A stretch of 64,000 nt of DNA, from positions 108,684 through 172,683 of the forward strand of contig JAKBSJ010000002.1 of assembly GCA_021844945.1 (NCBI GenBank), written 5' to 3'. This stretch comes from Thermoplasmata archaeon. GTDB lineage: Archaea; Thermoplasmatota; Thermoplasmata; Lutacidiplasmatales; UBA184. The position numbers and the translations under genes are program-made. Of this stretch, positions 13,410-52,374 are shown piece by piece; position 1 is the stretch's first letter; the number at the start of each line of letters is the position of its first letter. The notes beneath the pieces are model-generated. The model searched no databases. It was not told the origin of the DNA and saw nothing but the letters and a program-made list of their open reading frames with translations.

Positions 13410-13419
13410 GTGAGCTCTC

Positions 13420-14964
13420 ATGGAAAGCGCGCTGGATCCGACCCGGGCGTCCGCCCGCTCGCCGGTGGCGATCGTCGATACCCCGGATCGATCCACCTAC
13501 CCGTACCGCCGCGAGGTGACGCCTCCTTTCGCGCACGTCGAGGTCACCCTCGATCCGGGTTCAGCCTCTCTGCGCTACGAGGTGCACGAACCCGTGCTCA
13601 CGGAGGAAGAACGGGAGGCGAGCGACGCGCTCGACCGCGCGCTGCCCCGGATCCTGCCTCCTCTCCCGGGACCTGCCACTCCCGAGCGGCGCACGGACCA
13701 CTTGAGGCATACGGTGAACGAGTTCCTGGCCGCGCGCTATCCCGGGCTATCGTCGGCGTCCCGAGAGCGGATCCTGTACTTCCGACGACGCGACGCGATC
13801 GGCTACGGGCCTATTGACGCGATCCTCCGCGACCCCGAGATCGAGGACGTGTCGTGCGACGGGGTCGGGTCCGCGGTCTTCGTCTATCACGCGCGTTTCG
13901 AGTCGATACGCACGAACGTCGTCTTCCCGGATGAGGGCGCCCTCAACGGTTACGTGGTCCGACTCGCGCAGCGATGCGCTCGATCCGTGAGCGTCGCGCG
14001 ACCGCTTCTGGACGCCTCGACCCCCGAAGGTCACCGCGTCCAGCTCACCTACGGTCGTTCGGTCAGCGGCCGCGGCTCGACCTTCACCCTGCGGCGCTTC
14101 CGCGACCGGCCCTTCACCCCGATCGACCTCGTCCGCAACGGGAGCTGGAGCGCCGAGATGGTCGCGTACCTGTGGTTGGCGGCCGAGCACCGCGACTCGA
14201 TGATCGTGGTGGGAGGGCCGGGTGCCGGGAAGACCAGCACGCTCAACGCGATCGCCCTGTTCGTAGCGGCATCGGCGAAGATCGTCTCGATCGAGGATAC
14301 GCGGGAGATCAACCTCCCTCACGCCAACTGGGTACCGTTGACGACGCGCACCGGCGCCTCCATGGCCGGGATCGGGACGGACCGAGCCCAAGACATCGAT
14401 CTCTTCGACCTCCTCACCGCCGCGCTTCGGCAGCGTCCGAGCCACATCGTCGTCGGAGAGGTACGGGGCCGCGAGGCCTACACAATGTTCCAGGCGATGA
14501 ATACCGGCCACGCCACGTATGCGACGATGCACGCGGATTCCCTCCGGGCTCTGGTCCAGCGCTTGGAGAGCCCGCCGATCCAAGTCCCTCGCGCACTGCT
14601 GTCCGCGCTTCGGGAGGTGTTGATCGAGACGTTGACCCGCACCCCATCCGGACCCGCCCGTCGCATCCGGGAGCTGGTCGAGGTGCGGGGAGTCGATGCC
14701 GACACCGGCGAGGTCGTGAGCACGCCGGTATTCACGTGGGACGAAGCGGCCGACACTTTCCACTACCTCGGGCACTCCTACCTTTTCGAGCGGATCGCGA
14801 CGTCGACCGGTCGCTCGGCCGGTGCGGTCGACGAGGAGTTCCGGCGCCGCGCCGCGGCGATCCAGGCTCTCGCCGACTCCGGGCGCCCGATCGGTCCGAC
14901 CGCCATGTGGCAGTGGATCCGCGAGAACGGCCGCTGGGCGAGCGGACCTGCGGAGGTCCTGTGA
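13420..14964 (+). CDS. Type II/IV secretion (PilB/FlaI-like) ATPase 1
   Basis: DPEIEDVSCDG, Walker A GGPGAGKT, SIEDTRE, LRQRP, GEVRGRE and TGH...TMHA motifs. Confidence 0.93.
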   Translation: MESALDPTRASARSPVAIVDTPDRSTYPYRREVTPPFAHVEVTLDPGSASLRYEVHEPVLTEEEREASDALDRALPRILPPLPGPATPERRTDHLRHTVNEFLAARYPGLSSASRERILYFRRRDAIGYGPIDAILRDPEIEDVSCDGVGSAVFVYHARFESIRTNVVFPDEGALNGYVVRLAQRCARSVSVARPLLDASTPEGHRVQLTYGRSVSGRGSTFTLRRFRDRPFTPIDLVRNGSWSAEMVAYLWLAAEHRDSMIVVGGPGAGKTSTLNAIALFVAASAKIVSIEDTREINLPHANWVPLTTRTGASMAGIGTDRAQDIDLFDLLTAALRQRPSHIVVGEVRGREAYTMFQAMNTGHATYATMHADSLRALVQRLESPPIQVPRALLSALREVLIETLTRTPSGPARRIRELVEVRGVDADTGEVVSTPVFTWDEAADTFHYLGHSYLFERIATSTGRSAGAVDEEFRRRAAAIQALADSGRPIGPTAMWQWIRENGRWASGPAEVL

Positions 14965-16828: not shown

Positions 16829-16831
16829 ACC

Positions 16832-18352
16832 GTGACCGCGCTCCCGGCTCTCGATTCCCGGATCCGCGGGACCGCCGAGGTTCGTCCCGGAGAAGATTCG
16901 GGTGAACTCTCCTACCGGATCGTCGAGCCCGCGCTCTCTACGGAAGAACGCCGAGGCCTCGGCGAGATCCGTCGGCGGCTCTTCGCGACGGAGCTGATCC
17001 GACCGGAGGGTCCGACGGAGGCGGAGGCGCGACTCACCGAGCGGATCGAGGTCCTCGCGCGAGCGGATCCCCGTCTCCAGGACCCGGACCGCCGGGCCCG
17101 GCTGACGTACTACCTGGTCCGGGACCTGGTGGGCTTCGGACCAATCGACGTACCGATGCGCGACCCCGACATCGAGGACATCTCGTGCGACGGGGTGGGA
17201 GTCCCTCTGTTCGTTCACCACCGCCGCTGGGGCTCGCTCGCCACCAACCTCTCCTTTCCCGACCCGACCGAGCTCGATCGCTTCGTAGGGAGCCTCGCGC
17301 AGCGCTCGGGCCGCCATCTATCGGTGGCCGAGCCTCTCGTGGAGGGGACGCTTCCCGGGGGTGCCCGGCTCGAGGCCAGCCTCGGACCGCAGATCACGAC
17401 GCGCGGGTCTACGTTCACCATTCGCCGGTTCCGGGAACGAGCGTTCACGCCCGCCGATCTCGTCCGCTCCGGCACGATCGACGCCGGAACGATGGCCTAC
17501 CTGTGGCTCGCGGTCGAGTCGGGCCAATCGTTCGTCGTCCTCGGAGGAACGGCCAGCGGCAAGACGACCACGCTGAACGCGCTCCTCCACTTCGTCCCGG
17601 CCGAGCGCAAGATCGTTTCGATCGAGGACACACGGGAGCTCCACCTTCCCCACGAGAACTGGGTCCCGCTCGTGACCCGCGGCCCCGCGCCCCGGGCCGG
17701 AGAGGCCGAGAGTCCGGAGGTCGGGGCCATCGACATGTACGACCTGCTCAGCGCCGCGCTGCGCCAGCGCCCACAGTACCTGGTCGTGGGCGAGGTTCGA
17801 GGGCGAGAAGCCTACACCGTGTTCCAGGCGATGGCGACCGGTCGGACCTGCTGCGCGACCTTCCATGCCGAGAGCCTCCGGGCGATGGTCCAGAGAATGG
17901 AGAACCCGCCGATCTCGCTCCCTCGGGCGCTGCTGGCGGCCCTGCCCATCGTCCTCGTCCAAGCCCAGGTGCGCGTGGACGATATGCCGGCCCGCCGCAT
18001 TCGCTCGGTCATCGAGATCGAAGGGCTGGACCCTGAAACCGAGGAGGTCGTCGCGAGCACGGTCTACCGTTGGGATGCGGACGGCGACCGGTTCGAGACC
18101 AGCGGCCAGTCCCGAGTGCTCGAGCAACTCGCCCGCGAGCGAGGGGTGGGGACCGACGCGATCCAGCGAGAGCTCGATCGTCGGCGGTCGCTCCTCGAGC
18201 GATGGGCCGGCGCGACCGACCGGGACCCGCTGGCGCCCGATCCCTTCCTGCGCGACGCCGCGGCGTACGCCCGGGATCCGGAGGGCGCGCTCTCCGCGGC
18301 CCTCCGCAGGGAAGAGGTGCCGCCCCCGGCCGGCCGTGGCGGTACGCCGTGA
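16832..18352 (+). CDS. Type II/IV secretion ATPase 2
   Basis: DPDIEDISCDG, Walker A GGTASGKT, SIEDTRE, LRQRPQY and GEVRGRE motifs. Confidence 0.93.
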   Translation: MTALPALDSRIRGTAEVRPGEDSGELSYRIVEPALSTEERRGLGEIRRRLFATELIRPEGPTEAEARLTERIEVLARADPRLQDPDRRARLTYYLVRDLVGFGPIDVPMRDPDIEDISCDGVGVPLFVHHRRWGSLATNLSFPDPTELDRFVGSLAQRSGRHLSVAEPLVEGTLPGGARLEASLGPQITTRGSTFTIRRFRERAFTPADLVRSGTIDAGTMAYLWLAVESGQSFVVLGGTASGKTTTLNALLHFVPAERKIVSIEDTRELHLPHENWVPLVTRGPAPRAGEAESPEVGAIDMYDLLSAALRQRPQYLVVGEVRGREAYTVFQAMATGRTCCATFHAESLRAMVQRMENPPISLPRALLAALPIVLVQAQVRVDDMPARRIRSVIEIEGLDPETEEVVASTVYRWDADGDRFETSGQSRVLEQLARERGVGTDAIQRELDRRRSLLERWAGATDRDPLAPDPFLRDAAAYARDPEGALSAALRREEVPPPAGRGGTP

Positions 18353-41764: not shown

Positions 41765-41774
41765 AGAGCGGACC

Positions 41775-42434
41775 GTGCAACCGACGGGCTGGGCCGGGGT
41801 CTACCGCGAAGGCCGCGACCTCTACACCGCAAACTCCCGCCCCGGGGAGCGGGTCTACGGGGAGACGTTGCGCACGGCCGACGGACGGGAGTACCGTCAG
41901 TGGGATCCCTTCCGTTCGAAGCTTGCGGCGCTCCTCGTTCGGGGAGCTCGCGAACCGGGCCCGTGGGCCGGGGCTGGATCGGTTCTCTATCTCGGGGGAG
42001 CGCATGGAACCACGGTGAGCCATCTCTCGGATCTCCTCCCCGAGGCGCGGCTGTTCGTCGTCGAGAAGAGCCCCACATCGTTCGCACCGCTCCTCGCGCT
42101 CGCGCGACGGCGCTCGAACATCTATCCGATCCTGGACGACGCGCAACTGCCCGAGCGGTATTCGGCGGAGGTCGGCGCGGTCGATCTTGTGTACCAGGAT
42201 GTCGCGCAGCGGAACCAAGCGGCGATCTTTGCCGAGAACGTTCGCGTGGCCCTGGCCCCGGGCGGACGGGCGGTGCTGATGCTCAAGGTCCGCTCGGTTT
42301 CACAGCGGCGCTCCGCGGAAGCCATCGTCCGCGAGGCGCGCCGGACGCTCGAGGGGGCCTCGCTCTCGATCTCCGAGGAGATCGCGCTCTCCCCCTTCGC
42401 GCGCGAACACGTCGCGCTCGTCGTGCGCCGGTAG
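41775..42434 (+). CDS. flpA: Fibrillarin-like rRNA 2'-O-methyltransferase
   Basis: VYGE, WDPFRSKLAA, VLYLGGAHGTTVSHLSD and YQDVAQRNQ motifs. Confidence 0.93.
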   Translation: MQPTGWAGVYREGRDLYTANSRPGERVYGETLRTADGREYRQWDPFRSKLAALLVRGAREPGPWAGAGSVLYLGGAHGTTVSHLSDLLPEARLFVVEKSPTSFAPLLALARRRSNIYPILDDAQLPERYSAEVGAVDLVYQDVAQRNQAAIFAENVRVALAPGGRAVLMLKVRSVSQRRSAEAIVREARRTLEGASLSISEEIALSPFAREHVALVVRR

Positions 42435-42513: not shown

Positions 42514-42996
42514 ATGCAAGGGACATCGATCGGCATTGGGAACTGGTGGAATGCGACGAACCGGCCGGGGGGTAGGGTCGGAGCGGCGGCAGGGGATCGA
42601 CGCGCGCTCTGCATCATCCTGGCCGCGACCATCGGGGTGGCGATCGCCCTGGTCGTGGCGATCGCCCCGTTCGCGCCGACGATCGCGGCCCACATGCCGC
42701 CGGCGCGCGAGCTCCACGCGCTCGTGCCGTCGAGGGCGGCTCAGGGGACCTCGACGGCCGTGACGAACTTCACGAGCTCGATCTCGAGGCTCGTCGACCT
42801 GGTGGCCCTCGCCGGGGGCGGAGTCCTCGCCCTCGTATGGACCCGGGTCGCGCTCAGCTGGTTCTCCGGCGATATCTCGAAGAAGGTCCAAGCCAAGGAT
42901 CGCGCTCGGGACGCGCTGATCGGGACGCTGATCTTCACCGCGGCGATCACGGGTCTCGTTTGGGGACTCGCCCAGTGGGTCATTTCCGGCGTGTGA
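42514..42996 (+). CDS. VirB2/TrbC-like pilin
   Basis: Signal-like N-terminus and possible cleavage at SRAA|QG. Two TM helices are joined by the basic loop SGDISKKVQAKDRARDALIG. Confidence 0.7.
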   Translation: MQGTSIGIGNWWNATNRPGGRVGAAAGDRRALCIILAATIGVAIALVVAIAPFAPTIAAHMPPARELHALVPSRAAQGTSTAVTNFTSSISRLVDLVALAGGGVLALVWTRVALSWFSGDISKKVQAKDRARDALIGTLIFTAAITGLVWGLAQWVISGV

Positions 42997-43003
42997 GACG
43001 GCC

Positions 43004-44113
43004 GTGAGCGATCCGTGGGGCGAGCTGGTCCAGGCCCTGCTTGCCGGGGCGTTCGGGTTGTTCGCTCTCGCGATGAATACGGCGATCACCCCGACGTACA
43101 ACAATCTCTTTGTCCCGGCGATGTCCCCCGGGCAACTCTTCCCATCGCTCTCGGATCCGGGCGGAGGAGCCACGTTCCTCGCGGAAGCGGCAAAGTTCAG
43201 CTCCTACCTCCTCGTCAACATCGTCGATCCTGCCGTAGCGCTCGTCGCCGTCGGATTGGGCCTGTTGTACCTCTCGAAGGCCCTCTACCAACGAAGTGGA
43301 CCTTGGGCGGAAGCGCTGATCGTCCGGTTCATCGTCGCGGTGGTCGTCGCGAACTTCACAATCCTGTTCGCTACCGGGATCCTCGACCTCGGGGCGATCA
43401 CCTACCCGACGATCGCCGCTTGGGACGGCGGCGCGTGGCAGAACTGGACCAACCTGGCGGGGTGGGGCCAGGGAACGTTCATCTGGCAGAACGGGGCGCT
43501 CGCGTTCGTCCTCACGTTCGTCGAGTTCTCGCTCGTTCTCTTGTTGGCCATCCTGATCGGGCTGCGCGATGCCGGGCTCGCGGTCCTCCTCGTCGTGCTC
43601 CCGGTGTTCACCCTGCTATGGCCCATCCATCCGTTCTCCGCTCTTGCGCGTCGCGGTTGGATGCTCTTCATCGAGTTGGCCCTCCTCCCGTGCGTCTTGG
43701 TCGTCCCGCTCGAACTCGCGGTCCACTCGCCGAATCCGATCCTCCTCGTCGCGTTCCTCACGCTGGCGCTGTCGACCCCCTACCTGATCTCGATCAGCGG
43801 AGCGCAGCTCTCCCAACTCGGATTCCCGGCGGCCGGAGCGGCGCTTTCGGGCGCCGTGGAACGAGGCTTGCTCGGGGCATCCCGTACGACCTCGGGCCCG
43901 ATCAGCGGAACCTCCGTCGGGGGCACCGGCATCGCCGGCGCACTCACCCCGAGCGTGCGGGCGGCCAGCTCGGTAGCCCTTCCCGCCGCCGCTCCGGCCG
44001 CGATCGCCGGCGCCCTGGGCCAGGGAGCGAGCCACCTAGTGCAGCACGTTCGTACCCCCTCGGGCGAGTTCAAGCCCTCGTGGAAGCCGGTGCCGCCGGC
44101 GGGTGAGGAATGA
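43004..44113 (+). CDS. VirB6/TrbL-like polytopic membrane protein
   Basis: About 6-7 TM helices; R...LLVVLPV...WP...W pattern; Gly/Ala-rich C-terminal tail. Confidence 0.65.
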   Translation: MSDPWGELVQALLAGAFGLFALAMNTAITPTYNNLFVPAMSPGQLFPSLSDPGGGATFLAEAAKFSSYLLVNIVDPAVALVAVGLGLLYLSKALYQRSGPWAEALIVRFIVAVVVANFTILFATGILDLGAITYPTIAAWDGGAWQNWTNLAGWGQGTFIWQNGALAFVLTFVEFSLVLLLAILIGLRDAGLAVLLVVLPVFTLLWPIHPFSALARRGWMLFIELALLPCVLVVPLELAVHSPNPILLVAFLTLALSTPYLISISGAQLSQLGFPAAGAALSGAVERGLLGASRTTSGPISGTSVGGTGIAGALTPSVRAASSVALPAAAPAAIAGALGQGASHLVQHVRTPSGEFKPSWKPVPPAGEE

Positions 44114-44114
44114 G

Positions 44115-44891
44115 ATGGGGGCGGGAGCGACGTTCCCGGACGTCGCGCTGCCGGTCGCGATCGGCCGGCGGATGCGACTGGGCCCATTTCCTTCCGCTCG
44201 CGACGCTCTCCGATTTCTCGCGTATGCAACGGCCGGCGCGGTCGTCATTCCGTTCTTCGGAGCGGTCGCATGGCTCCCCTTCCTCGGTGCCGGGTTCCTC
44301 CTCACGGTGGTTCCGATCGACGGAACATCGCTCGACCTCGAGCTCGCGCGGCGGGTCTCGCACTGGCATCGCTCCACGATTCCCGTCGAGAGCCCTATGA
44401 CGCCGATCCGGCGATCGAGAGGTGCCGTGGTGGAAGTGGGGACGGGAGCGGAGGTCGCGGTCCTCCGTTGCCGTGGAAAGCCGATCGCCTTCCTTCCTCC
44501 GGAGCAGCTACGGCAGCGCTTCGACGCCTTCCGGGAGCTCCTGCGCTCCACCGACGGCGGCATCGTGCTCGCGACGGCCGGCGTCCCGGTCAATCCCACG
44601 CCGTTCCGGCCGGCGATCCCCCACGGAGAAGACGGAGAAGCGCGGGCGGCCCGCGCCTACTCGGAGATGGTCTGCCTTCTCTGCCGCCGGCGCTCCCAGC
44701 GCCGCATCTACGTGCTGCAATGGGACGCGACGGTCCTCGCCGGCGGGACATCGCGGCTCGAGCATCGGCTCGGCGAACTCGCGGCGCGTCTCGCGCATCT
44801 CGGGGTCGAGCCGGAGCGACTGGCCGGTAGGGAGCTGACGGGGGCCTTGCATCGGTTCGGGTTCGCCAACGCGCCGCGAGGCTCGCGGTGA
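44115..44891 (+). CDS. PrgI/VirB3-like membrane protein with C-terminal alpha/beta domain
   Basis: RMRLGPF-x-S-x-RD followed by two TM helices and IDG..LD; lies before the VirB4-like gene. Confidence 0.55.
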   Translation: MGAGATFPDVALPVAIGRRMRLGPFPSARDALRFLAYATAGAVVIPFFGAVAWLPFLGAGFLLTVVPIDGTSLDLELARRVSHWHRSTIPVESPMTPIRRSRGAVVEVGTGAEVAVLRCRGKPIAFLPPEQLRQRFDAFRELLRSTDGGIVLATAGVPVNPTPFRPAIPHGEDGEARAARAYSEMVCLLCRRRSQRRIYVLQWDATVLAGGTSRLEHRLGELAARLAHLGVEPERLAGRELTGALHRFGFANAPRGSR

Positions 44892-45250
44892 TCGCGGCTC
44901 CCTGGATCGCCCGTCTGGAAGCCGATCCGGTACGCATCTCGGTCGGCATGGCGATCGTTTGCGGCGCGGCGGCGCTGATCGAGCCGTCTTTCGCCGGTCT
45001 GACCTTCGCGCTGTTCGCGCTCGCCGTTGCGAGTTTCCTCCTCCGGTATCACCGAGCCGATCCCGCCCTGCGACGGTTCTCCGCGATTGCGGCCGCGGTC
45101 TATGCCGGCCTCGCGGTCGGAGTCGCGGGCTACTTCGGCCTCCCGGCGCCGTGGGAGATGGCGCGAGCCCTCTCGCTGGCCCTGTCGGCGACTCCCCTCG
45201 CGTTCTATGCGCGCGGAACCCGCGTTCGCACGCCGGAGGCGTCACCGTGA
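44888..45250 (+). CDS. Small 4-TM membrane protein of the T4SS-like operon
   Basis: 120 aa, hydrophobic; GTGA overlaps at both ends. Confidence 0.65.
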   Translation: MIAAPWIARLEADPVRISVGMAIVCGAAALIEPSFAGLTFALFALAVASFLLRYHRADPALRRFSAIAAAVYAGLAVGVAGYFGLPAPWEMARALSLALSATPLAFYARGTRVRTPEASP

Positions 45251-46934
45251 CGAATCCTTCGATCGTTGAGGACGCCGAGTGGCGAATCCGCGGAACCCGT
45301 GCGGTCGCGCCCCTCCTCCTTCGTCAGCTCCCGAACGAGGTACCGTTCGGATTCGTGGGGCGGCTCGCACCGACCTCGACTCCGATCGAGCTCTACCTGG
45401 AAGCGTTCCCCATCTCACCGGGACGCGCCCTCGAGATCTTGCACGGGGCTCGCGCGGTCGCCCGCGTCGAGCTGGTTCGGGGCGGCGCCGACGACGCCCG
45501 CGCGGCCGAGCTCGAGGCGGAGCAGGCCGGAGCCGAGGAGCTCGGTCGGCAGGTGGCGCGTCGCGAGCAGGAGCTCTGGCGTGTCGGTATTCGCTGGACC
45601 GCCTCAGGGAGTTCCGCGCCCCGGGCCCTAGAAGCACGCGTCGCGCTGGAGTCGCGGCTGGCCGCGCTCGGATTTCGCGCGCATGTGCCACGCCATGAGG
45701 TGGGGGCGGCGCTCGCTCCCCCGGACCTTACGGGTCCGGGCGCGCGCCCGCTCCGCTTCTTCCACACGTTGCCGACCGACGGGCTCGCCGCGTTCTATCC
45801 GTTCGTGGACGAGACCGTCCTCGAACCGGGGGGATTCTGATCGGCCTTCTGCTCGAGGACGCCGCGCCGGTTTTCATCGATCGCTGGGCGCATGCCAGCC
45901 ACTCGTGGGGTATCTTCGGCACGACCGGCAGCGGGAAGTCGTTCGCCGCGGCGTTGACCATCCTCCGGTCCCGATGGATGCGACCGGACCTCTCGGTGAC
46001 GATTCTCGACCCTCTCGGAGAGTTCGGGCACCTGGCCGAGACGTTGGGCGGGAACGTCATCCGACTGGGACCTCAAGGCGGCGATCGCCTCAACCCGCTC
46101 GATCCCGCGACGGCGGGCGGGGATCGTCGAGAAAAGGCGGGCCGCGTGGCCGCCATGCTCCGCGCGCTCTTCCCGTCCCTGCGGGACGAGGAAGGAGCGA
46201 CGCTTGACGCCGCGGTCAGCACCCTGTACGCCGACGGTCCGAAGGTCCCGGTCTTCTCCGATCTGCTGAACGCGATCGCCGATCGAACCCGAGGAACGGA
46301 CCGGCTCGGGACATTGCTCGAGATCTTCCGTTCGGGTTCTCTCCGGGCGGTCAACGGTCCCACGACCGTTGACCCGGAGGCCACGGTCGTCGCCGTGGAC
46401 TTCCGGGGAGTCCCCGAGGAACAGCTGGCGTTCCATCTTGCCTACGTCCTGGACTGGGCGTACGGCCGCCTGCAGCACGTGAAGGGCCCGAAGCTCCTCC
46501 TCGTCGATGAGGCGCATCTGCTCGCACGGCATCCCGCCACGGCCGAGTTCCTGGATCGCGTCGTCCGTCACGTGCGGCACTTCGATGCCGGTGTGCTGCT
46601 CCTCAGCCAGCATCCCAACGACTTCCTGGAGCATCTGACCGGCCGCTCGCTGCTCGGAAACCTGAGCGCGACGCTCCTCCTCCGGATCCCGCGGCCCGAC
46701 CCCGCCCTTTCCGCTTTCTTCTCGCTCACGCCGAGCGAGGTCGACTGGCTGCCGCGCACGCATCTGCCGAAGGAGGCGGGGTTCTCCGAGGGTTTGCTCC
46801 GGGTCGGAGAGTTTCACTTGCCGATCGCGGTGGTCGCGTCGACGCCCGAGTACGAGTTCCTAGCGGGGCAGCTCGGCTCGGCCACGACGTCGTCGAAGGA
46901 GACCCACGATGCACTTCGAGCATCAGATTTATGA
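45247..46934 (+). CDS. VirB4-like ATPase split by a single-base frameshift at G6 run 45828-45833
   Basis: The N-part ends AAFYPF...EPGG. The shifted frame continues ILIG...PVFIDRW...GTTGSGKS, RLNPLD, LLLVDEAH, VRHVRHF and SQHPNDF. Confidence 0.85.
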
Positions 46935-46957
46935 GTGGCTCATCGGCTCGAACGCCG

Positions 46958-47452
46958 ATGAGCGCGGCGGAAGAAGCGACCGCCGAGCACCCGCGTCGCA
47001 AGCGGACGCCGTGGAGCCTGAAGTCGATCGTGGTCGACGTGACCGGCCGGGAGATGTCCGAATTCCAGGACCGGCCGAGCCCTGCTGGCGGGGGATCGCC
47101 GGCCCATGCCCCACGGCTTCACGAACCTGTCGCGGAGATCGGGGATCTCGATCCGGTCGAGCGTATCACCCCGCCGCTTTCCCGTGCCAACGGCCGACGC
47201 TACCACGGCCACGCGGACGAGGACCATGCGGCGACCATGGAGCGGCACCGTCCCGCGAACGGGGGTTCCGGCTCGCCCGCGAACCGCCCGGAGCGGATTT
47301 ACCTCCACTACCTGCTCCTCCACCTCGACAAGCTGAGCCTTCCGGCGTTGTGGTACTTGCGGCGCCAGGTCAACGAGGAGATCGCCTACCGCTCGTCGTC
47401 CTCGGCGCCGACGGCCAGTCCTCCTCCGGCGAGCCCCCCGACACCTCCATGA
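46958..47452 (+). CDS. Hypothetical protein, largely disordered, with a C-terminal helical motif
   Basis: PERIYLHYLLLHLDKLSLPALWYLRRQVNEE; directly downstream of the virB4-like gene. Start may be 46931. Confidence 0.55.
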   Translation: MSAAEEATAEHPRRKRTPWSLKSIVVDVTGREMSEFQDRPSPAGGGSPAHAPRLHEPVAEIGDLDPVERITPPLSRANGRRYHGHADEDHAATMERHRPANGGSGSPANRPERIYLHYLLLHLDKLSLPALWYLRRQVNEEIAYRSSSSAPTASPPPASPPTPP

Positions 47453-48245
47453 GGCCACGACGAGCGGCTTCGGCCTGCAAGCGGGCGTAGGTCGCGTCAT
47501 CGCGTTCGACCCCGATTGCGCTCCGACCGAGGGCGAGGGCCGTCCACACGGTCGTCCCGGTGCCCGCAAAGGGATCGAGCACCGTATCGCCCTTCACGGA
47601 GAACATCCGCACGAGTCGTCGGGGGATCTCGGCAGGGAACGCACCGGTTCGACGTCCGTCGCGGACCTGCGCCGCCCCTCGGATGTCGCTCCAGATCTGG
47701 CTGAACCAATGGTCCCGCTCCGGCCTCGAGAAGCGGCTCGCGTAGCGCGCCGCGTCGTGCGGGGGGAACCGGCGAAGTCCGCCCCGTCGGAACAGGAGCA
47801 CGAACTCGCAGTCGATCGTGACGTAGGCGTTGGGAGGGAGGAATCCACTGCCGAGGAAGGCGTTCGGCTTGTTCGTCGGTTTCTTCCATAAGACGTACGG
47901 GAGCGGGACGAAGCCGCATCGGGTCGCTCGAGAGAGGACCTCGGAATGGTTCGGCCAGAGCCGGAACCCCCCGTCGATCGAGCGAAGGGCGTCCCCGACC
48001 ACGACCGCGAGCACCGCTCCCGGGGCGAGGACGCGAAACGCCTCCCGCCAGGCCCCTTCCAAGAGGTCGTGCATCGCGTCGTAGTCGGCCGCTCCTTGCG
48101 CGAGGAAGATCGCATCCCACTGCGGGATCATGGGATACGGCGGGCTCGTGACGATAAGCTGGACCGAACCGTCGGCGAGCGCCGAGAGCGCCCCCGCCGA
48201 CCCGTGGATGAGGGATAGGCTCGGTGTGCGATCGTGCGAGTCCAC
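47370..48245 (-). CDS. Orphan beta-class DNA methyltransferase
   Basis: VTSPPYP, WKKPTNKP, AFPAEIPRRLVRMFS and VLDPFAGTGTT motifs. Confidence 0.9.
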   Translation of the reverse strand: MDSHDRTPSLSLIHGSAGALSALADGSVQLIVTSPPYPMIPQWDAIFLAQGAADYDAMHDLLEGAWREAFRVLAPGAVLAVVVGDALRSIDGGFRLWPNHSEVLSRATRCGFVPLPYVLWKKPTNKPNAFLGSGFLPPNAYVTIDCEFVLLFRRGGLRRFPPHDAARYASRFSRPERDHWFSQIWSDIRGAAQVRDGRRTGAFPAEIPRRLVRMFSVKGDTVLDPFAGTGTTVWTALALGRSAIGVERDDATYARLQAEAARRGLMEVSGGSPEEDWPSAPRTTSGRRSPR

Positions 48246-48296
48246 GCCGCGGGGAGCGGGTGGGACCGTTTATACGCGATGCCGCTCCCGGGCAGC

Positions 48297-49604
48297 ATGC
48301 GGCTCGACAAGCCCGTCCTCCAGGTGGCTCTCGACTTCGAAAACCTTTCGCGGGCGCTCACCGCCGCCCGCGAAGCAGTCGAGGGCGGGGCCGACTGGAT
48401 TGAGGCGGGCACGCCCCTCGTGAAGAGCGAGGGCCTTGACGCCGTACGGGAGCTGAAGAAGGCGTTCCCAAACCATCGGATCGTCGCGGATCTCAAGGTC
48501 ATGGACACGGGAGCTTTCGAGGTCGAGATCGCGGCGAAGGCGGGCGCCGACCTGGTCACGGTTTTGGGAGCCGCGGACGACGATACAATTGCCGAGGCGG
48601 TCCGGGGCGGCGAGCTCTACGGCGCCGAAATCGTGGTCGATCTGCTCAACGTTCCCGATCCGATCGCGCGCGCGAAGCGTTCTGCGGAGCTTGGGGCGGC
48701 GGCCGTCTGCTGGCACGTGGGGATCGACATGCAGATGCAGGCTCGCACCCCCTTCGAGACCCTCGAAGCGCTCGCCCGGGAATGCCCGATCCCGGTCGCG
48801 GTCGCCGGAGGGCTCACCAGTGAGTCGGTCGCTCGAGCCACCCGCGCCGGCGCGCAGATCCTGATCGTGGGCGGTGCCATCACGAAAAGCCCCAACATCG
48901 TGGAAGCCACCCAGCGGATCCGAACGGCGATCGACACGCGAACGGAGGTCGCCTCGGAGCACTTCCGGCGATTCGCGGGCGCGGATGTGCGCGAAGCGTT
49001 CCGGAAGGTCTCGAGCCCGAACGTCACCGACGCGATGCAGCGGCAGGGGGCGATGCACGGGATCCTGCCGCACCTCAAAGACCCGCTCTCCCGGATGGTC
49101 GGACCGGCCGTGACGGTCGTGACGCGCGACGGGGACTGGGCGAAACCGGTCGAGGCGATCGATCACGCCGGCCCGGGGGACGTTATCGTCATCGACGCGG
49201 GCGGCGGGACGACCGCGGTCTGGGGGGAGCTCGCGAGTTGGAGCGCCCACGGACGAGGGGTCGCGGGCGTCGTGATCGACGGCGCGGCCCGGGACCTCGA
49301 TGCGGCGGTCGTCGACCTCGGTTTTCCGATCTTCAGCCGGAGCGTTAGCCCGAACGCGGGAGAGCCGAAGGGACATGGAGAGATCGGGGTAGAGGTCGTA
49401 GTCGGGGGGCAGAAGGTCCGGCCCGGCGACTGGATCGTCGGCGATCTGAGCGGGCTGGTGGTCGTCCCGCGGGAGCGAGCCCAGGAGATCGCGAACCGCG
49501 CGCTGGACGTCCTTGAGCACGAGAATCGCGTGCGCGAGGAGATCAAACGCGGCTCGACGCTGGGCAAGGTCCAGAAGCTCGAGCGCTGGGAACGGGTAGG
49601 GTAG
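48297..49604 (+). CDS. hxlA: 3-hexulose-6-phosphate synthase fused to an RraA/MenG domain
   Basis: LQVALD, EAGTPLVKSEG, ADLKVMDTG and HVGIDMQ, followed by the RraA part AVWGELAS...IDGAARD...GDWIVGD. Confidence 0.9.
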   Translation: MRLDKPVLQVALDFENLSRALTAAREAVEGGADWIEAGTPLVKSEGLDAVRELKKAFPNHRIVADLKVMDTGAFEVEIAAKAGADLVTVLGAADDDTIAEAVRGGELYGAEIVVDLLNVPDPIARAKRSAELGAAAVCWHVGIDMQMQARTPFETLEALARECPIPVAVAGGLTSESVARATRAGAQILIVGGAITKSPNIVEATQRIRTAIDTRTEVASEHFRRFAGADVREAFRKVSSPNVTDAMQRQGAMHGILPHLKDPLSRMVGPAVTVVTRDGDWAKPVEAIDHAGPGDVIVIDAGGGTTAVWGELASWSAHGRGVAGVVIDGAARDLDAAVVDLGFPIFSRSVSPNAGEPKGHGEIGVEVVVGGQKVRPGDWIVGDLSGLVVVPRERAQEIANRALDVLEHENRVREEIKRGSTLGKVQKLERWERVG

Positions 49605-49663
49605 ACCCGCCGCCGCAATCGCCTTAGGCTCGGGCCCTGCTCGGCGCCCCAAGCCGACCCGAT

Positions 49664-49738
49664 GCTCCCGTAGTCTAGTCCGGTCAAGGATCCGTGGCCT
49701 TCGACCACGAAACGCGGGTTCGAATCCCGCCGGGAGCA
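49664..49738 (+). tRNA. tRNA-Glu(UUC), with atypical C33
   Basis: Acceptor GCTCCCG/CGGGAGC; anticodon arm CGTGG CC TTC GA CCACG; T-arm GCGGG TTCGAAT CCCGC. Confidence 0.85.
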
Positions 49739-49947
49739 TCCCCATCCTCGAACGACTGGGCGGGTTCGACGTGTAGGTCGCTTGAGATCGCGGAGGCGAC
49801 CTCGGCAGAGATCCCTCTCCAAGTTCCTCCTCGAGGGGGACCCATCCTTCTCCCGCGCTACCGTCGTGCAGGTACGGGAGGCCTTCTTCCGTTGCCCGTG
49901 GAAACGACGCCGTAACATCTTAGGGCCCCGACTCCATCGCGGAGGGG

Positions 49948-52374
49948 ATGCCGAAGCTGCGCAGGGGCCGGGCCCGCCTGCTGGAATCCATCGCGTTCAT
50001 GGTGGTAGGATTCCTGATCTTCGGCACCATCGTTGTCGGGGGCGCGCCGGCCACGGCCGGCCTCCACGACGTGACGGCCCTCCCGTCGCCGGGGACCGCG
50101 GTCTCTGCGACCGCCCTTCCGTACGTTGCCTACACGCTGAATCTTCTCAACGGGAGCCTCCTCGACCAGAACGTGCCCACCCCCGGATGCGCGCTGCCCA
50201 CGCCGGCCCCGTACGTGGTCCACGTGCCCGAGGGGCCGTCGAGCGCTCTCGCCCTGCCGAACCTGCACCAACTCCTCGTGGCCTGCCCCACGGGCAACGT
50301 TCTCGTGATCAACGACACCACCGGAGCGCTTCTCGGCCGGGTGGTGGTGGGAGCGCGGCCGATCGCCCTCCTCGCTCAGGAAGGCGTGGGCTCGGACCGC
50401 GTCTACGTCGCTAACTCGGGCTCGAACAACGTCAGCATCGTTTCCATCGCGACCGACCGCGCCGTCGGAAACCTCTCGCTCCCCTCGGGATCCATGCCTT
50501 CCGGCCTCGCGCTCGGGCCGGACGGGACCCACCTTTACATCACCAACCGGGGGTCCGGTTCCGTCAGCGTCTTCAGCACGCTCACGCGGACGCTTACCGG
50601 ATCGATCTCCGTGGGTAGCGCGCCCCGAGGGATCGCCTTCGATCCGTTCAACGGCAGGATCTATGTCGCGAACACCGGCTCGGACAACGTAAGCGTGATC
50701 TCTCCGGTCACGAACTCGGTGGTGGCGACGGTCCCGGTCGGCGCGGATCCTACCGGGGTCGCCGTCTCGGGAACGAACGGCAACGTCTACGTGTCGAACG
50801 CGAACTCGAGCTCCGTCTCGGTCCTCTCCGCGACGAACGGATCCGTGATCGCGTCGGTGCCGGTCGGACCGACGCCCCTCGGCATCGCCTACTCCGCGTC
50901 CGACCAGGCCGTCTACGTGGCGAACGCGAACGGCGATTCGGTCTCCGTGATCGACGTCGGGACGGACTCCGTTACGCAGACACTCTCCGTCGGTGTCCGA
51001 CCGATCGGGATGGCGGCGGCCCCCACCGTGGTGTACTGCGTCAACTCAGGGTCCTACAACGTCAGCATGATCGCAACGGCCTCCCAAGCGGTCGTCGCGA
51101 GCCTGAGGGTTGCGACCTCCCCGCGGGGCATGGCGTATGACCCCTCGAACGGACGGCTCTTCGTTCCGCTCGGTGGCAACGGCAGCGTCGCCGTGATCGA
51201 CACCGCGACGAACCGGGTGATCACCACCCTGGCGACGGGGCTCGAACCGTCGCTGGCGACCTACGACCCGTACAACGGCCTCGTCTACGTCGACAACCAC
51301 GAAGCGAACACGATCTCGGTCATCAACGGGACGACCGACTCGGTGGTCGCGACGTTCCCGGTAGGCAACGGTCCGACCAGCATGGTCGTCGACCCGGTCT
51401 CCCAGCAGCTGTTCGTGGGCATCGGACACTCGGATCTCGTTCAGGTGATCAACACCTCGACGAACACGGTAGTCGCGTCGATCCCGGTGGGGAAGACTCC
51501 GTACGGCATGATCTACGTTCCGGTGGATGGGGGCCAGATCTTCGTGACGAACCAACGTTCCAAAGACCTCACGGTGATCGACCCCGCGACGGAGACGGTC
51601 GTCGGGAATTACTCGATCGCCGCGGAACCGACCTTCATGGCGTACGACGCGAGCAACGGGATCGTCTACATCTCCTCGTTCTCTACGGGGCGCGTCTTCG
51701 AGCTGGATGCGGCCACCGACGCGGTCGTCGGCAGCATTGCGGTCGGCGCTTCACCGATGGGAGTACTCGTGAACGGCCCGAGCGGCCTCGTCTATGTGGT
51801 TAACTATGGCTCGACGAACCTTACCGCGATCGATCCCTCGACGGCGACGGTCGTCGGCTCGGTACCGGTCGCCTCCGAGCCCATCGCGGCGGCCCTTCTC
51901 CCGAACGGGGAGACGTACGTGACCAACGCCGGGGCGAGCTCGATCTCCATCCTCGGGAACAACACGCTGACCGCGCTGCATCTCACCTCAGGATCGTCGA
52001 GGATCGCCCCCGGAGCCTCCACCGTCCTCCGGGCGACGGCGAGCTGCGCCTCTGGCCCGTGCCCCGGCAGCGTCCTCTACCGCTGGTCCCTTTCCAACAC
52101 GAACGATTCCTTGAACCGCACGGACGGCGCGTCCGTCACGATCTACGCTGGGGCGAGGGGCGGAACGACCAACGTCACGGTTCGGGCGGTGCTCGGCCCG
52201 GTGAACCTCACCGCCTCGCTCGCGATCCGGGTCGGCCCAGGACCGGGGTCCCCGACGCTCTTCGGGCTCCCACCGAACGCCGCCTACGCGGTCATCACGA
52301 GCGCCGTGATCGCGGCGGCGGCCGTCGTTGTGGCGGCCGTCTACGTCCTTCGCCGTACGCCGGGAGGGAAGTGA
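49948..52374 (+). CDS. YVTN/YncE double beta-propeller surface protein
   Basis: Signal peptide, about 14 YVxN-S-xx-VSVI repeats, an Ig-like domain and a C-terminal TM with basic tail. Confidence 0.9.
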   Translation: MPKLRRGRARLLESIAFMVVGFLIFGTIVVGGAPATAGLHDVTALPSPGTAVSATALPYVAYTLNLLNGSLLDQNVPTPGCALPTPAPYVVHVPEGPSSALALPNLHQLLVACPTGNVLVINDTTGALLGRVVVGARPIALLAQEGVGSDRVYVANSGSNNVSIVSIATDRAVGNLSLPSGSMPSGLALGPDGTHLYITNRGSGSVSVFSTLTRTLTGSISVGSAPRGIAFDPFNGRIYVANTGSDNVSVISPVTNSVVATVPVGADPTGVAVSGTNGNVYVSNANSSSVSVLSATNGSVIASVPVGPTPLGIAYSASDQAVYVANANGDSVSVIDVGTDSVTQTLSVGVRPIGMAAAPTVVYCVNSGSYNVSMIATASQAVVASLRVATSPRGMAYDPSNGRLFVPLGGNGSVAVIDTATNRVITTLATGLEPSLATYDPYNGLVYVDNHEANTISVINGTTDSVVATFPVGNGPTSMVVDPVSQQLFVGIGHSDLVQVINTSTNTVVASIPVGKTPYGMIYVPVDGGQIFVTNQRSKDLTVIDPATETVVGNYSIAAEPTFMAYDASNGIVYISSFSTGRVFELDAATDAVVGSIAVGASPMGVLVNGPSGLVYVVNYGSTNLTAIDPSTATVVGSVPVASEPIAAALLPNGETYVTNAGASSISILGNNTLTALHLTSGSSRIAPGASTVLRATASCASGPCPGSVLYRWSLSNTNDSLNRTDGASVTIYAGARGGTTNVTVRAVLGPVNLTASLAIRVGPGPGSPTLFGLPPNAAYAVITSAVIAAAAVVVAAVYVLRRTPGGK

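Follow-up and report, generated by a model that had tools for sequence, protein, structure and literature searches.

A conserved chromosomal operon for a candidate minimal type IV secretion-like apparatus with a two-gene VirB4 in soil Thermoplasmata

The window analysed here is a stretch of 64,000 nucleotides of a Thermoplasmata archaeon (GenBank contig JAKBSJ010000002.1, positions 108,684 to 172,683), taken from contig C4 of a 1.26-Mb, five-contig genome that is 86.7% complete, and its GC content is ∼68%. At 42514-47452, the listing of open reading frames (ORFs) holds six same-strand (+) ORFs that follow one another head to tail and that we refer to as g1 to g6. Third-position GC is high in all six, as it is in the real genes of this genome, and the junctions are tight: seven bases separate g1 from g2, the g2 stop codon (44111-44113) ends one base ahead of the conserved g3 ATG at 44115, GTGA overlaps join g3 to g4 (44888-44891) and g4 to g5 (45247-45250), and an ATGA overlap joins g5 to g6 (46931-46934). 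An earlier note on this DNA had described five tightly linked genes with two GTGA junctions, followed by a small ORF that it could not place; both junctions were borne out, and the small ORF is confirmed as the conserved g6. The parts that the note had listed, namely a pilin and VirB6-like, VirB4-like and putatively VirB3-like proteins, likewise proved right in profile, Pfam and structure comparisons. The six genes are real and represent a minimal set of the type IV secretion system (T4SS) kind, laid out as follows.

42514..42996, + strand: g1, VirB2/TrbC-type T4SS pilin candidate of 160 amino acids (Pfam matches in orthologues, topology)
43004..44113, + strand: g2, putative VirB6/TrbL-type polytopic membrane protein of 369 amino acids (distant homologues, structure)
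44103..44891, + strand: g3, predicted membrane hairpin plus first part of the VirB4 N-terminal domain, 262 amino acids (AF2, Foldseek, VIA)
44888..45250, + strand: g4, small membrane protein of 120 amino acids, no family assigned (hydrophobic segments, conserved position)
45247..45840, + strand: g5 first piece, second part of the VirB4 N-terminal domain (orthologue alignment)
45828..45833, + strand: frame change of g5 in a run of six G (orthologue alignment)
45828..46934, + strand: g5 second piece, ATPase with Walker A and B motifs and C-terminal domain (profile, NCBIfam, Pfam DUF87)
46931..47452, + strand: g6, conserved soluble protein of 173 amino acids, no family assigned (conserved after g5)

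The presumed motor of the set is g5. A profile of its intact orthologues found the C-terminal domain of VirB4 (PDB 4AG5) at an E-value of 5.8e-28, with HerA-type helicases far lower. Among the NCBIfam models, an intact orthologue matched conju_CD1110 best (E 7.4e-40, profile positions 204-684 of 752, which take in both N-terminal domain and ATPase), then VirB4_plasma (3.3e-28), TraC and VirB4_CagE, with HerA reaching merely 6e-4; all of these scores lie below the curated cut-offs (136.9 versus 325 bits for conju_CD1110). Walker A (GTTGSGKS) and Walker B (LLLVDEAH) motifs are present, and Pfam DUF87 matches the second piece at 1.1e-10. As judged from these comparisons, g5 is a distant VirB4 and no member of the NCBIfam equivalogs scored. 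The VirB4 identity that the earlier note had given to this gene is upheld, yet the single open frame it had assumed is not. In the window, g5 opens with a GTG at 45247 and meets a stop at 45838-45840; its remainder, up to 46934, is read in a different frame. The switch falls in the run of six G at 45828-45833, where the window is one base short relative to the frame that all intact orthologues share. The first piece aligns to residues 1-199 of these orthologues, and in an alignment of intact orthologues of 555-573 amino acids the two pieces abut exactly, the first ending in ...LEPGG and the second beginning with ILIGL.... A programmed frameshift was considered and rejected, the orthologues being single open frames.

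The N-terminal portion of VirB4 that g5 lacks appears to be encoded by g3. This protein, whose probable conserved start is the ATG at 44115, begins with a membrane hairpin (approximately residues 38-72) at the site that VirB3 takes up in VirB3-VirB4 fusion proteins; an alpha/beta domain comes next. With its AF2 model (pLDDT 83.7, from 38 sequences) as the query, Foldseek returned TrwK/VirB4 of plasmid R388 in all of the top eight rows (best E 1.2e-3), and VIA-align superposed model residues 95-259 on VirB4 residues 16-217 (Z 11.6, root-mean-square deviation 3.4 Å, 157 residues aligned), followed by four further VirB4 rows at Z 7.3-9.3 and the first unrelated row at 6.4. The g3 profile gave no rows against PDB sequences, and a six-frame search of the genome with Pfam PrgI found no match. 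In a relative, genome G075, a single protein of 838 amino acids unites an N-terminal hairpin with a complete VirB4. Both genes are colinear with it, the profile of g3 covering residues 32-252 (hhalign probability 82.7, E 9.6e-6) and that of g5 residues 281-810 (probability 100, E 3.6e-51). Co-folding of the g3 domain with the first 196 residues of g5 scored 0.83 in three runs that shared at least 88% of contacts, with a partner pLDDT of at least 83 and a best score of 0.00 among three controls. That mark is reached by 58 of 80 solved complexes and by 2 of 110 mismatched pairs, and as the halves of a split domain can pass through their likeness to solved VirB4, it speaks of fit and not of binding. 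Judging from profiles and models, a single VirB4 has been divided over g3 and g5, and g4 lies between the two parts. The earlier label of g3 as PrgI/VirB3-like may apply to the hairpin and falls short in extent, the gene also carrying the first part of the VirB4 N-terminal domain. The NCBIfam model SCO6880_fam (positions 33-81) matches the g3 hairpin in three of nine members as well as the VirB4 N-terminal region of another G075 protein. Actinobacteria may thus have a comparable separate protein made of such a hairpin and a VirB4 N-terminal region.

Hydrophobic-segment prediction makes g2 a polytopic membrane protein. Its profile retrieved 135 representatives at E<=1e-3 from among 1.84 billion proteins; of the 88 distant members scanned, ten match Pfam TrbL (best 1.2e-8) and seven TrbL_4 (best 1.4e-9), no other membrane family recurs among them, and the rest are without a family. 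A precomputed TrbL_3 label is attached to 15 among the 120 close homologues listed; hmmscan of six homologues bearing it returned no TrbL_3 at E up to 1, and a six-frame search of the genome with TrbL_3 gave no match either. Against PDB sequences, the g2 profile produced chance-level rows only (E above 1). The AF2 model (pLDDT 83.9, from 87 sequences) retrieved R388 TrwI/VirB6 in the top five Foldseek rows (best E 3.5e-3). In VIA-align, VirB6 came out at Z 10.8, 10.6 and 10.5, with 221-223 aligned residues that span nearly the entire chain, followed by Legionella DotA at Z 10.0 and the next row at 7.8, values to be read alongside the tool's own remark that helical bundles can reach Z ∼10 to 11 by chance. 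All top matches of g2 in the Atlas of language-model look-alikes are TrbL-type (score 0.93). Because sequence, structure and language-model look-alikes agree, we assign g2 as a putative VirB6/TrbL-type protein.

The pilin candidate g1 starts with a hydrophobic segment (residues 32-50) and a variable Pro/Ser/Thr-rich linker. The conserved domain behind these has two hydrophobic helices with a basic loop, rich in K/R, between them. Pfam T4SS_pilin (PF18895) matches 12 of 36 orthologues (best E 9.3e-9) and TrbC (PF04956, TrbC/VirB2) two of the 36 (E 1.7e-8). Language-model look-alikes are T4SS_pilin clusters (score 0.90), and the profile gave chance-level rows only (E above 1) against PDB sequences. 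Just ahead of the first conserved helix, 11 of 12 sequences of one alignment carry an N-F-S/T sequon, the Asn of which is nearly invariant among the 36 orthologues; this sequon would face outwards if the basic loop is cytoplasmic. From the two-transmembrane pilin proposed earlier, the pilin type, the two helices and the basic loop hold up; the suggested cleavage between AA and Q varies among orthologues.

The remaining two genes are conserved in place. For g4, three to four hydrophobic segments were found, as expected from the earlier description of a four-transmembrane protein; it is weakly similar among relatives (tblastn matches in 6 of 40 loci) but its position is kept, with a same-sized ORF at that position even in a relative of 30% GC (L021), and it has no Pfam or NCBIfam match. 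The soluble g6 carries the motifs RRRxSWSLKxIVEDVxGRPI and PERIYLHYLLLHLDRLS, follows g5 within the genus as well as in a single distant locus (L064), and had no Pfam, NCBIfam or PDB-sequence match, the single PDB row standing at E 0.22. Taken together, the window's own copies of g1-g4 and g6 gave no family in Pfam and two weak rows only in NCBIfam.

The chromosomal setting of the operon is conserved too. Its neighbours in the window are the following.

41772..42434, + strand: left flank, second fibrillarin paralogue (Pfam Fibrillarin 5.5e-59)
47370..48245, - strand: orphan N6/N4 DNA methyltransferase, convergent neighbour (Pfam N6_N4_Mtase 1.9e-31)
48234..49604, + strand: right flank, hps-rraA fusion gene (Pfam OMPdecase/HUMPS and RraA-like)
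49663..49741, + strand: right flank, tRNA-Glu (tRNA scan)

Within the genus, the gene order reads DUF885, RidA, flpA paralogue, g1-g6, methylase, hps-rraA. It is kept in ten of the first ten loci, with the methylase and hps-rraA in nine of them. Among public loci, the flpA paralogue lies upstream in all 26 that reach far enough, so that the synteny with flpA which the earlier note had proposed to look for is indeed found, and the methylase and hps-rraA lie downstream in 31 of 32. Protein identities of g1-g6 within the genus (∼37-76%) are like those of the flanking genes. Records of related loci are labelled Thermoplasmata archaeon or Ca. Lutacidiplasmatales, in agreement with the lineage guessed from the letters. 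In a 30% GC genome of another family (L021), the order is large ORF, g1, g2, g3, g4, g5, at a matching low GC, and this combination of order and composition argues for long residence.

The g5 ATPase was found in 21 of 24 genus genomes in a first draw and in 25 of 28 in a second, in 34 of the 37 genomes of the family, and, with matches up to E 1e-10 counted, in 72 of the 301 class genomes. By other families of the class, the counts are 0/39 and 0/35 in two large ones and 8/10, 3/3 and 2/5 elsewhere; the tallies include one or two unpublished genomes each (G019, G128, G236). A quick, midpoint-rooted tree groups the ATPases of the syntenic chromosomal loci as a single clade (SH-aLRT 99) and keeps the two additional G075 copies (98) outside it; owing to long branches, its deep placements are unsafe. 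The conserved order, the presence of the ATPase in nearly the whole family and the lack of integrase or att signs in the window bear out the chromosomal, non-mobile character that had been ascribed to the operon.

Integrase, transposase, relaxase and coupling-protein families had no match among the 53 window ORFs scanned (19 + 34). The nearby tRNA-Glu was rejected as an integration site, no repeat of it of 14 bases or more being present in the window. In the 86.7%-complete genome, there was no match to PF12696 (coupling protein) and none to PF03432, the one relaxase family searched. Archaeal relaxases are poorly known. The earlier statement that no relaxase, VirD4, integrase or att site lies nearby is correct for the window; beyond the neighbourhood it may not hold for VirD4, as an ATPase resembling the TrwB/VirD4 family is encoded 132 kb from the operon. 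This ORF of 845 amino acids (C4:19960-22494, - strand; L100:7961-10495), a P-loop ATPase without an obvious membrane anchor, scores 32.4 bits against TrwB_AAD_bind (cut-off 20.5), mainly over the P-loop regions and with DUF87 nearly equal, and adjoins a DUF6015 gene and Pus10. Similar ORFs of ∼870-900 amino acids occur in other genus genomes, and 14 of 61 genomes exceed the TrwB_AAD_bind cut-off. On this similarity, the protein is a candidate coupling ATPase, no more. The only PF02534 match in the genome, on contig C2, was discarded as a VirD4, being a HerA-like helicase.

Mobile relatives of the operon exist in the same class. G075 has two extra VirB4 copies on small contigs (L092 on G075:C43 and L093 on G075:C152): the fused hairpin-VirB4 of 838 amino acids, and a copy in a cluster with a VirD4-like coupling protein of 1191 amino acids (TrwB_AAD_bind and TraG-D_C). 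An ORF of 532 amino acids in the same surroundings (L093:137-1732), considered as an integrase, has no Pfam or NCBIfam match, and a G075 paralogue reached only 2.4e-4 against the CedB model (19.9 bits versus a cut-off of 700). In the complete genome G043, which has 39.5% GC and belongs to another family, a homologous cluster (L094, G043:C1:1005000-1024999) lies near a tyrosine recombinase, a helix-turn-helix gene and a protein of 852 amino acids with an N6_N4 methylase domain, and looks like an integrated element. The G075 cluster, linked to a type IV coupling protein (T4CP), and the G043 cluster, linked to an integrase and a methylase, together support a mobile ancestry of the operon. The orphan methylase that adjoins the operon in 31 of the 32 genus loci reaching downstream is of the same family as that beside the G043 cluster and possibly represents a relic of the ancestral mobile element.

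We read the operon as a chromosomally fixed, minimal T4SS-like apparatus of the monoderm and archaeal, MPF-FATA-like kind, which most likely passes DNA between cells, a reading to which we give somewhat better than an even chance. Its ground lies in the homologies and in the conserved chromosomal setting; from the precedents set by Ced and Ted we infer that these parts would come together and act on DNA, and likewise any direction of its transport. In such an apparatus, g1 would serve as a VirB2-type pilin with its basic loop on the cytoplasmic side of the membrane, and g2 as a membrane channel or platform of the VirB6 type. g3 and g5 would form a VirB4 motor of two polypeptides, with g3 anchoring it via the VirB3-like hairpin and supplying the first half of the VirB4 N-terminal domain, and with g5 supplying the second half plus the hexameric ATPase. 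g4 and g6 may be lineage-specific accessory parts. The set would descend from a conjugative element and be inherited vertically in a family of soil Thermoplasmata, where its likeliest job would be DNA passage between cells of a species, like that of Ced and Ted in Thermoproteota. A bolder version can be offered tentatively, as one we hold to be conceivable rather than probable: the operon may stand for a third, separate domestication of a conjugation machine, and for the first one outside Thermoproteota and in non-thermophilic soil archaea. The machine would mediate within-species exchange of chromosomal DNA across a Thermoplasmata family, with its VirB4 divided into an adaptor that is anchored in the membrane (g3) and an ATPase (g5), and with the methylase, inherited along with the operon, marking exchanged DNA as self.

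Ced and Ted derive from T4SS, are domesticated and chromosomal, and transport chromosomal DNA of the cell; domesticated conjugation machinery of this sort has been reported from hyperthermophilic Thermoproteota only, the authors of that work knowing of no other case (PMC9905601). The Ted system of Thermoproteales (TedA, TedB, TedC) is likewise chromosomal and without relaxase, and when compared by its parts list it resembles the present operon in a VirB2-like pilin with N-terminal leader, a VirB6-like protein and a genuine VirB4-type ATPase (PMC9905601). The operon differs from Ted in that its host belongs to a different phylum and habitat, being a soil member of the Thermoplasmata, in that all parts stand in one tight operon, in the VirB4 split over two genes with a small membrane gene in between, and in lacking HerA, ParA and Rad50 neighbours, with g6 and the methylase conserved alongside. 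This soil host is presumably mesophilic.

Ced of Sulfolobales and Desulfurococcales (CedA, CedA1, CedA2, CedB, CedD) is also a domesticated, conjugation-derived machine. One share of the VirB4 N-terminal domain belongs to CedB there and the other to CedD (PMC11868833), and the ATPase is anchored in the membrane by helices of its own. The two differ in their motors, as CedB and CedD both bear an ATPase and belong to the HerA clade, whereas in our operon only g5 does, and it is of the VirB4 clade; an intact g5 orthologue had no match to CedB (NCBIfam NF041017) at E up to 0.1, and its match to the CedD model (7e-11) is confined to the P-loop region. Ced pilins, moreover, are reportedly unprocessed. 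The earlier proposal of an analogous, domesticated machine for DNA import or exchange is supported in its chromosomal, non-mobile setting; the movement of DNA would follow by analogy, and the operon is not an orthologue of Ced.

The best sequence matches of g5 lie with MPF-FATA systems of monoderm bacteria and of archaeal plasmids and integrated conjugative elements (ICEs), which comprise PrgH, PrgI, PrgJ and a CD1110-type VirB4. The putatively VirB3-like hairpin and the VirB6-like and pilin-like parts are further points of likeness, as are the T4CP- and integrase-bearing mobile relatives in the same class. From MPF-FATA the operon departs in its g5 score (136.9 bits versus the 325-bit cut-off), in having no T4CP, relaxase, VirB8-like protein or hydrolase, and in its chromosomal fixation. 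The T4SS of Patescibacteria is MPF-FATA-derived, lineage-wide, chromosomal and mostly without relaxase as well; it is, however, bacterial and usually retains a T4CP and separate PrgI and VirB8 homologues, and the available text on it reports no VirB3-VirB4 fusions or splits of the g3/g5 kind (PMC12102498). The shared neighbours, the spread of the ATPase through the family and the lack of mobile-element families in the window support a domesticated, Ced/Ted-like apparatus of independent origin.

Several observations weigh against an apparatus that passes DNA. As to the parts, neither g2 itself nor the window's own copy of g1 has a direct Pfam match, the Foldseek E-values for the g2 and g3 models are merely 1e-3 to 1e-2, the VirB6 Z-scores of g2 fall within the chance range of helical bundles given above, and support for g1 as a VirB2/TrbC-type pilin candidate and for g2 as a predicted VirB6/TrbL-type protein is weak to moderate. 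As to the setting, there is no DNA-processing gene (relaxase, HerA/NurA, Rad50, ParA) in the operon, unlike in many Ted loci; a large predicted surface protein (∼750-1750 amino acids) is encoded directly upstream of g1 in most relatives; three genus genomes (G002, G260, G277; 91-93% complete) lack the ATPase, so that the block is not universal; and g5 was the only split one among 59 genes with a good orthologue when ORFs of the relative G005 were used as queries. The three genomes without the ATPase also lack DUF885, the flpA paralogue and hps-rraA, and a clean loss of the operon is unsupported for them, the whole neighbourhood being different. The main rival, a co-opted T4SS that does not move DNA and acts as an adhesive pilus or in protein secretion for cell-cell contact or surface attachment, strikes us as rather unlikely. 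It would account for an operon without coupling protein or relaxase and for the large secreted protein, encoded directly ahead of g1 in some 22 of the 26 genus loci as well as three distant ones (examples being L015:3910-6171, L016, L021:39-2489, L062:7-5265 and L064:125-5206) and bearing PKD, SprB and Ig-like domains in L062. It also has a precedent in Patescibacteria, whose conserved MPF-FATA-derived T4SS, mostly without relaxase, has had other roles proposed for it (PMC12102498). Yet the surface protein is dispensable, since neither the window nor at least three operon-bearing relatives (G013, G005, L049) have it, the closest archaeal precedents with the same minimal parts, Ced and Ted, move DNA, and an orphan DNA methylase accompanies both the operon and one mobile relative.

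That the operon is a decaying ICE instead of a host-adopted system is very improbable, because its position is conserved and its genes are intact. Relatives do have homologous clusters on mobile elements (that of G043 with an integrase, that of G075 with a T4CP and on a small contig), the window has a tRNA-Glu 2.2 kb beyond the operon on its downstream side, the adjacent methylase is of a kind common on mobile elements, g5 is frame-broken in the window and three genus genomes are without the block. Against this, the same position and gene order recur in 26 to 32 species-level loci and the ATPase is found throughout most of the family (34/37 genomes), operon protein identities (40-70%) are like those of flanking genes, base composition matches the host in 68% and 30% GC genomes alike, none of the 31 loci from assemblies free of frame breaks has a damaged gene, and the window has neither an integrase nor an att repeat. 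A further alternative concerns this genome alone and is compatible with the other readings, which concern the family: the one-base change in g5 may be real and the system dead here, which we find doubtful without considering it far-fetched. The break is present in the sequence, g5 is the only true split in the comparison with G005 (a second flagged case, r48, proved to be an antisense shadow ORF across two genes, and r50 a paralogue pair), and with G013 ORFs as queries merely two further splits appeared among 174 genes, both at C2:113.4-115.9 kb, indicating that frame errors are infrequent in this assembly. In that region (C2:113411-115901), two adjacent conserved opposite-strand genes show two frame changes each relative to their G013 orthologues, which are either assembly errors or pseudogenes. 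The g5 break, however, sits in a homopolymer of six G, and both pieces are otherwise fully conserved with their motifs intact. Frame breaks affect 8 of 40 related public loci, all eight from one class of very contiguous assemblies (8/9 of that class) and none from the other 31 loci; three of the eight have the break in g5, all g5 orthologues from short-read-like assemblies are intact, and the genome of the window, with its five contigs, is likewise highly contiguous. A homopolymer sequencing error is hence the likelier explanation, ahead of a real recent lesion.

Some features of the surroundings deserve mention in their own right. The genome has two fibrillarin genes, the other of which lies at C3:121104-122197 beside a Nop-domain gene. 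The fibrillarin flank named in the earlier note belongs to that family as a paralogue that is not next to Nop5, and is not the canonical gene; the three genus genomes without the operon have the Nop-adjacent fibrillarin type only. The product of hps-rraA joins a hexulose-phosphate-synthase-like domain (OMPdecase/HUMPS) to an RraA-like domain and is 78-88% identical across the genus, far more conserved than its neighbours. Further downstream (49948-52374, + strand) is the gene of a probable surface protein with glycosylation; its 808 amino acids form NHL/YncE-type beta-propeller repeats, with numerous N-x-S/T sequons and, at the C-terminal side, a hydrophobic segment. Some 25-29 kb upstream of the operon, two genes for ATPases of the T2SSE family (PilB/FlaI-like; 13414-14961 and 16829-18349, + strand; Pfam T2SSE E 7.8e-33 and 5.3e-32) suggest a type IV filament locus. 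In Sulfolobales, type IV pili bring cells together for Ced-mediated exchange.

As to precedent within the class, the earlier note had gone too far in suggesting that no such system was described in Thermoplasmata: a 2016 Cuniculiplasma genome paper listed for Thermoplasmatales, without further analysis, VirB4 genes clustered with those of membrane proteins, and a VirD4-family ATPase encoded apart from them (PMC5155288). T4SS genes in the class are therefore not new. By its description, that cluster is from the same class and likewise has a chromosomal VirB4 accompanied by membrane proteins, in a genome that encodes a VirD4-family ATPase elsewhere (PMC5155288); genomes of family f20 give weak g5 ATPase matches (E 1e-11 to 1e-19). 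The literature search, which covered main texts, brought up no study that analyses a domesticated system with conserved synteny in Thermoplasmata or such a VirB4 split, and the main text of the Lutacidiplasmatales genome paper has no secretion, conjugation or pili/pilus wording.

In summary, the present work describes a conserved chromosomal operon whose predicted products resemble a minimal T4SS. The way in which its VirB4 is naturally divided would indicate the portion of the N-terminal domain that can function by itself as a subunit anchored in the membrane, which bears on the assembly of VirB3 with VirB4 and parallels the division between CedB and CedD. If the operon indeed passes DNA between cells, conjugation-like gene exchange would extend to mesophilic archaea, namely to the Thermoplasmata abundant in acidic soils, and these uncultured soil lineages would have a mechanism for recombination.

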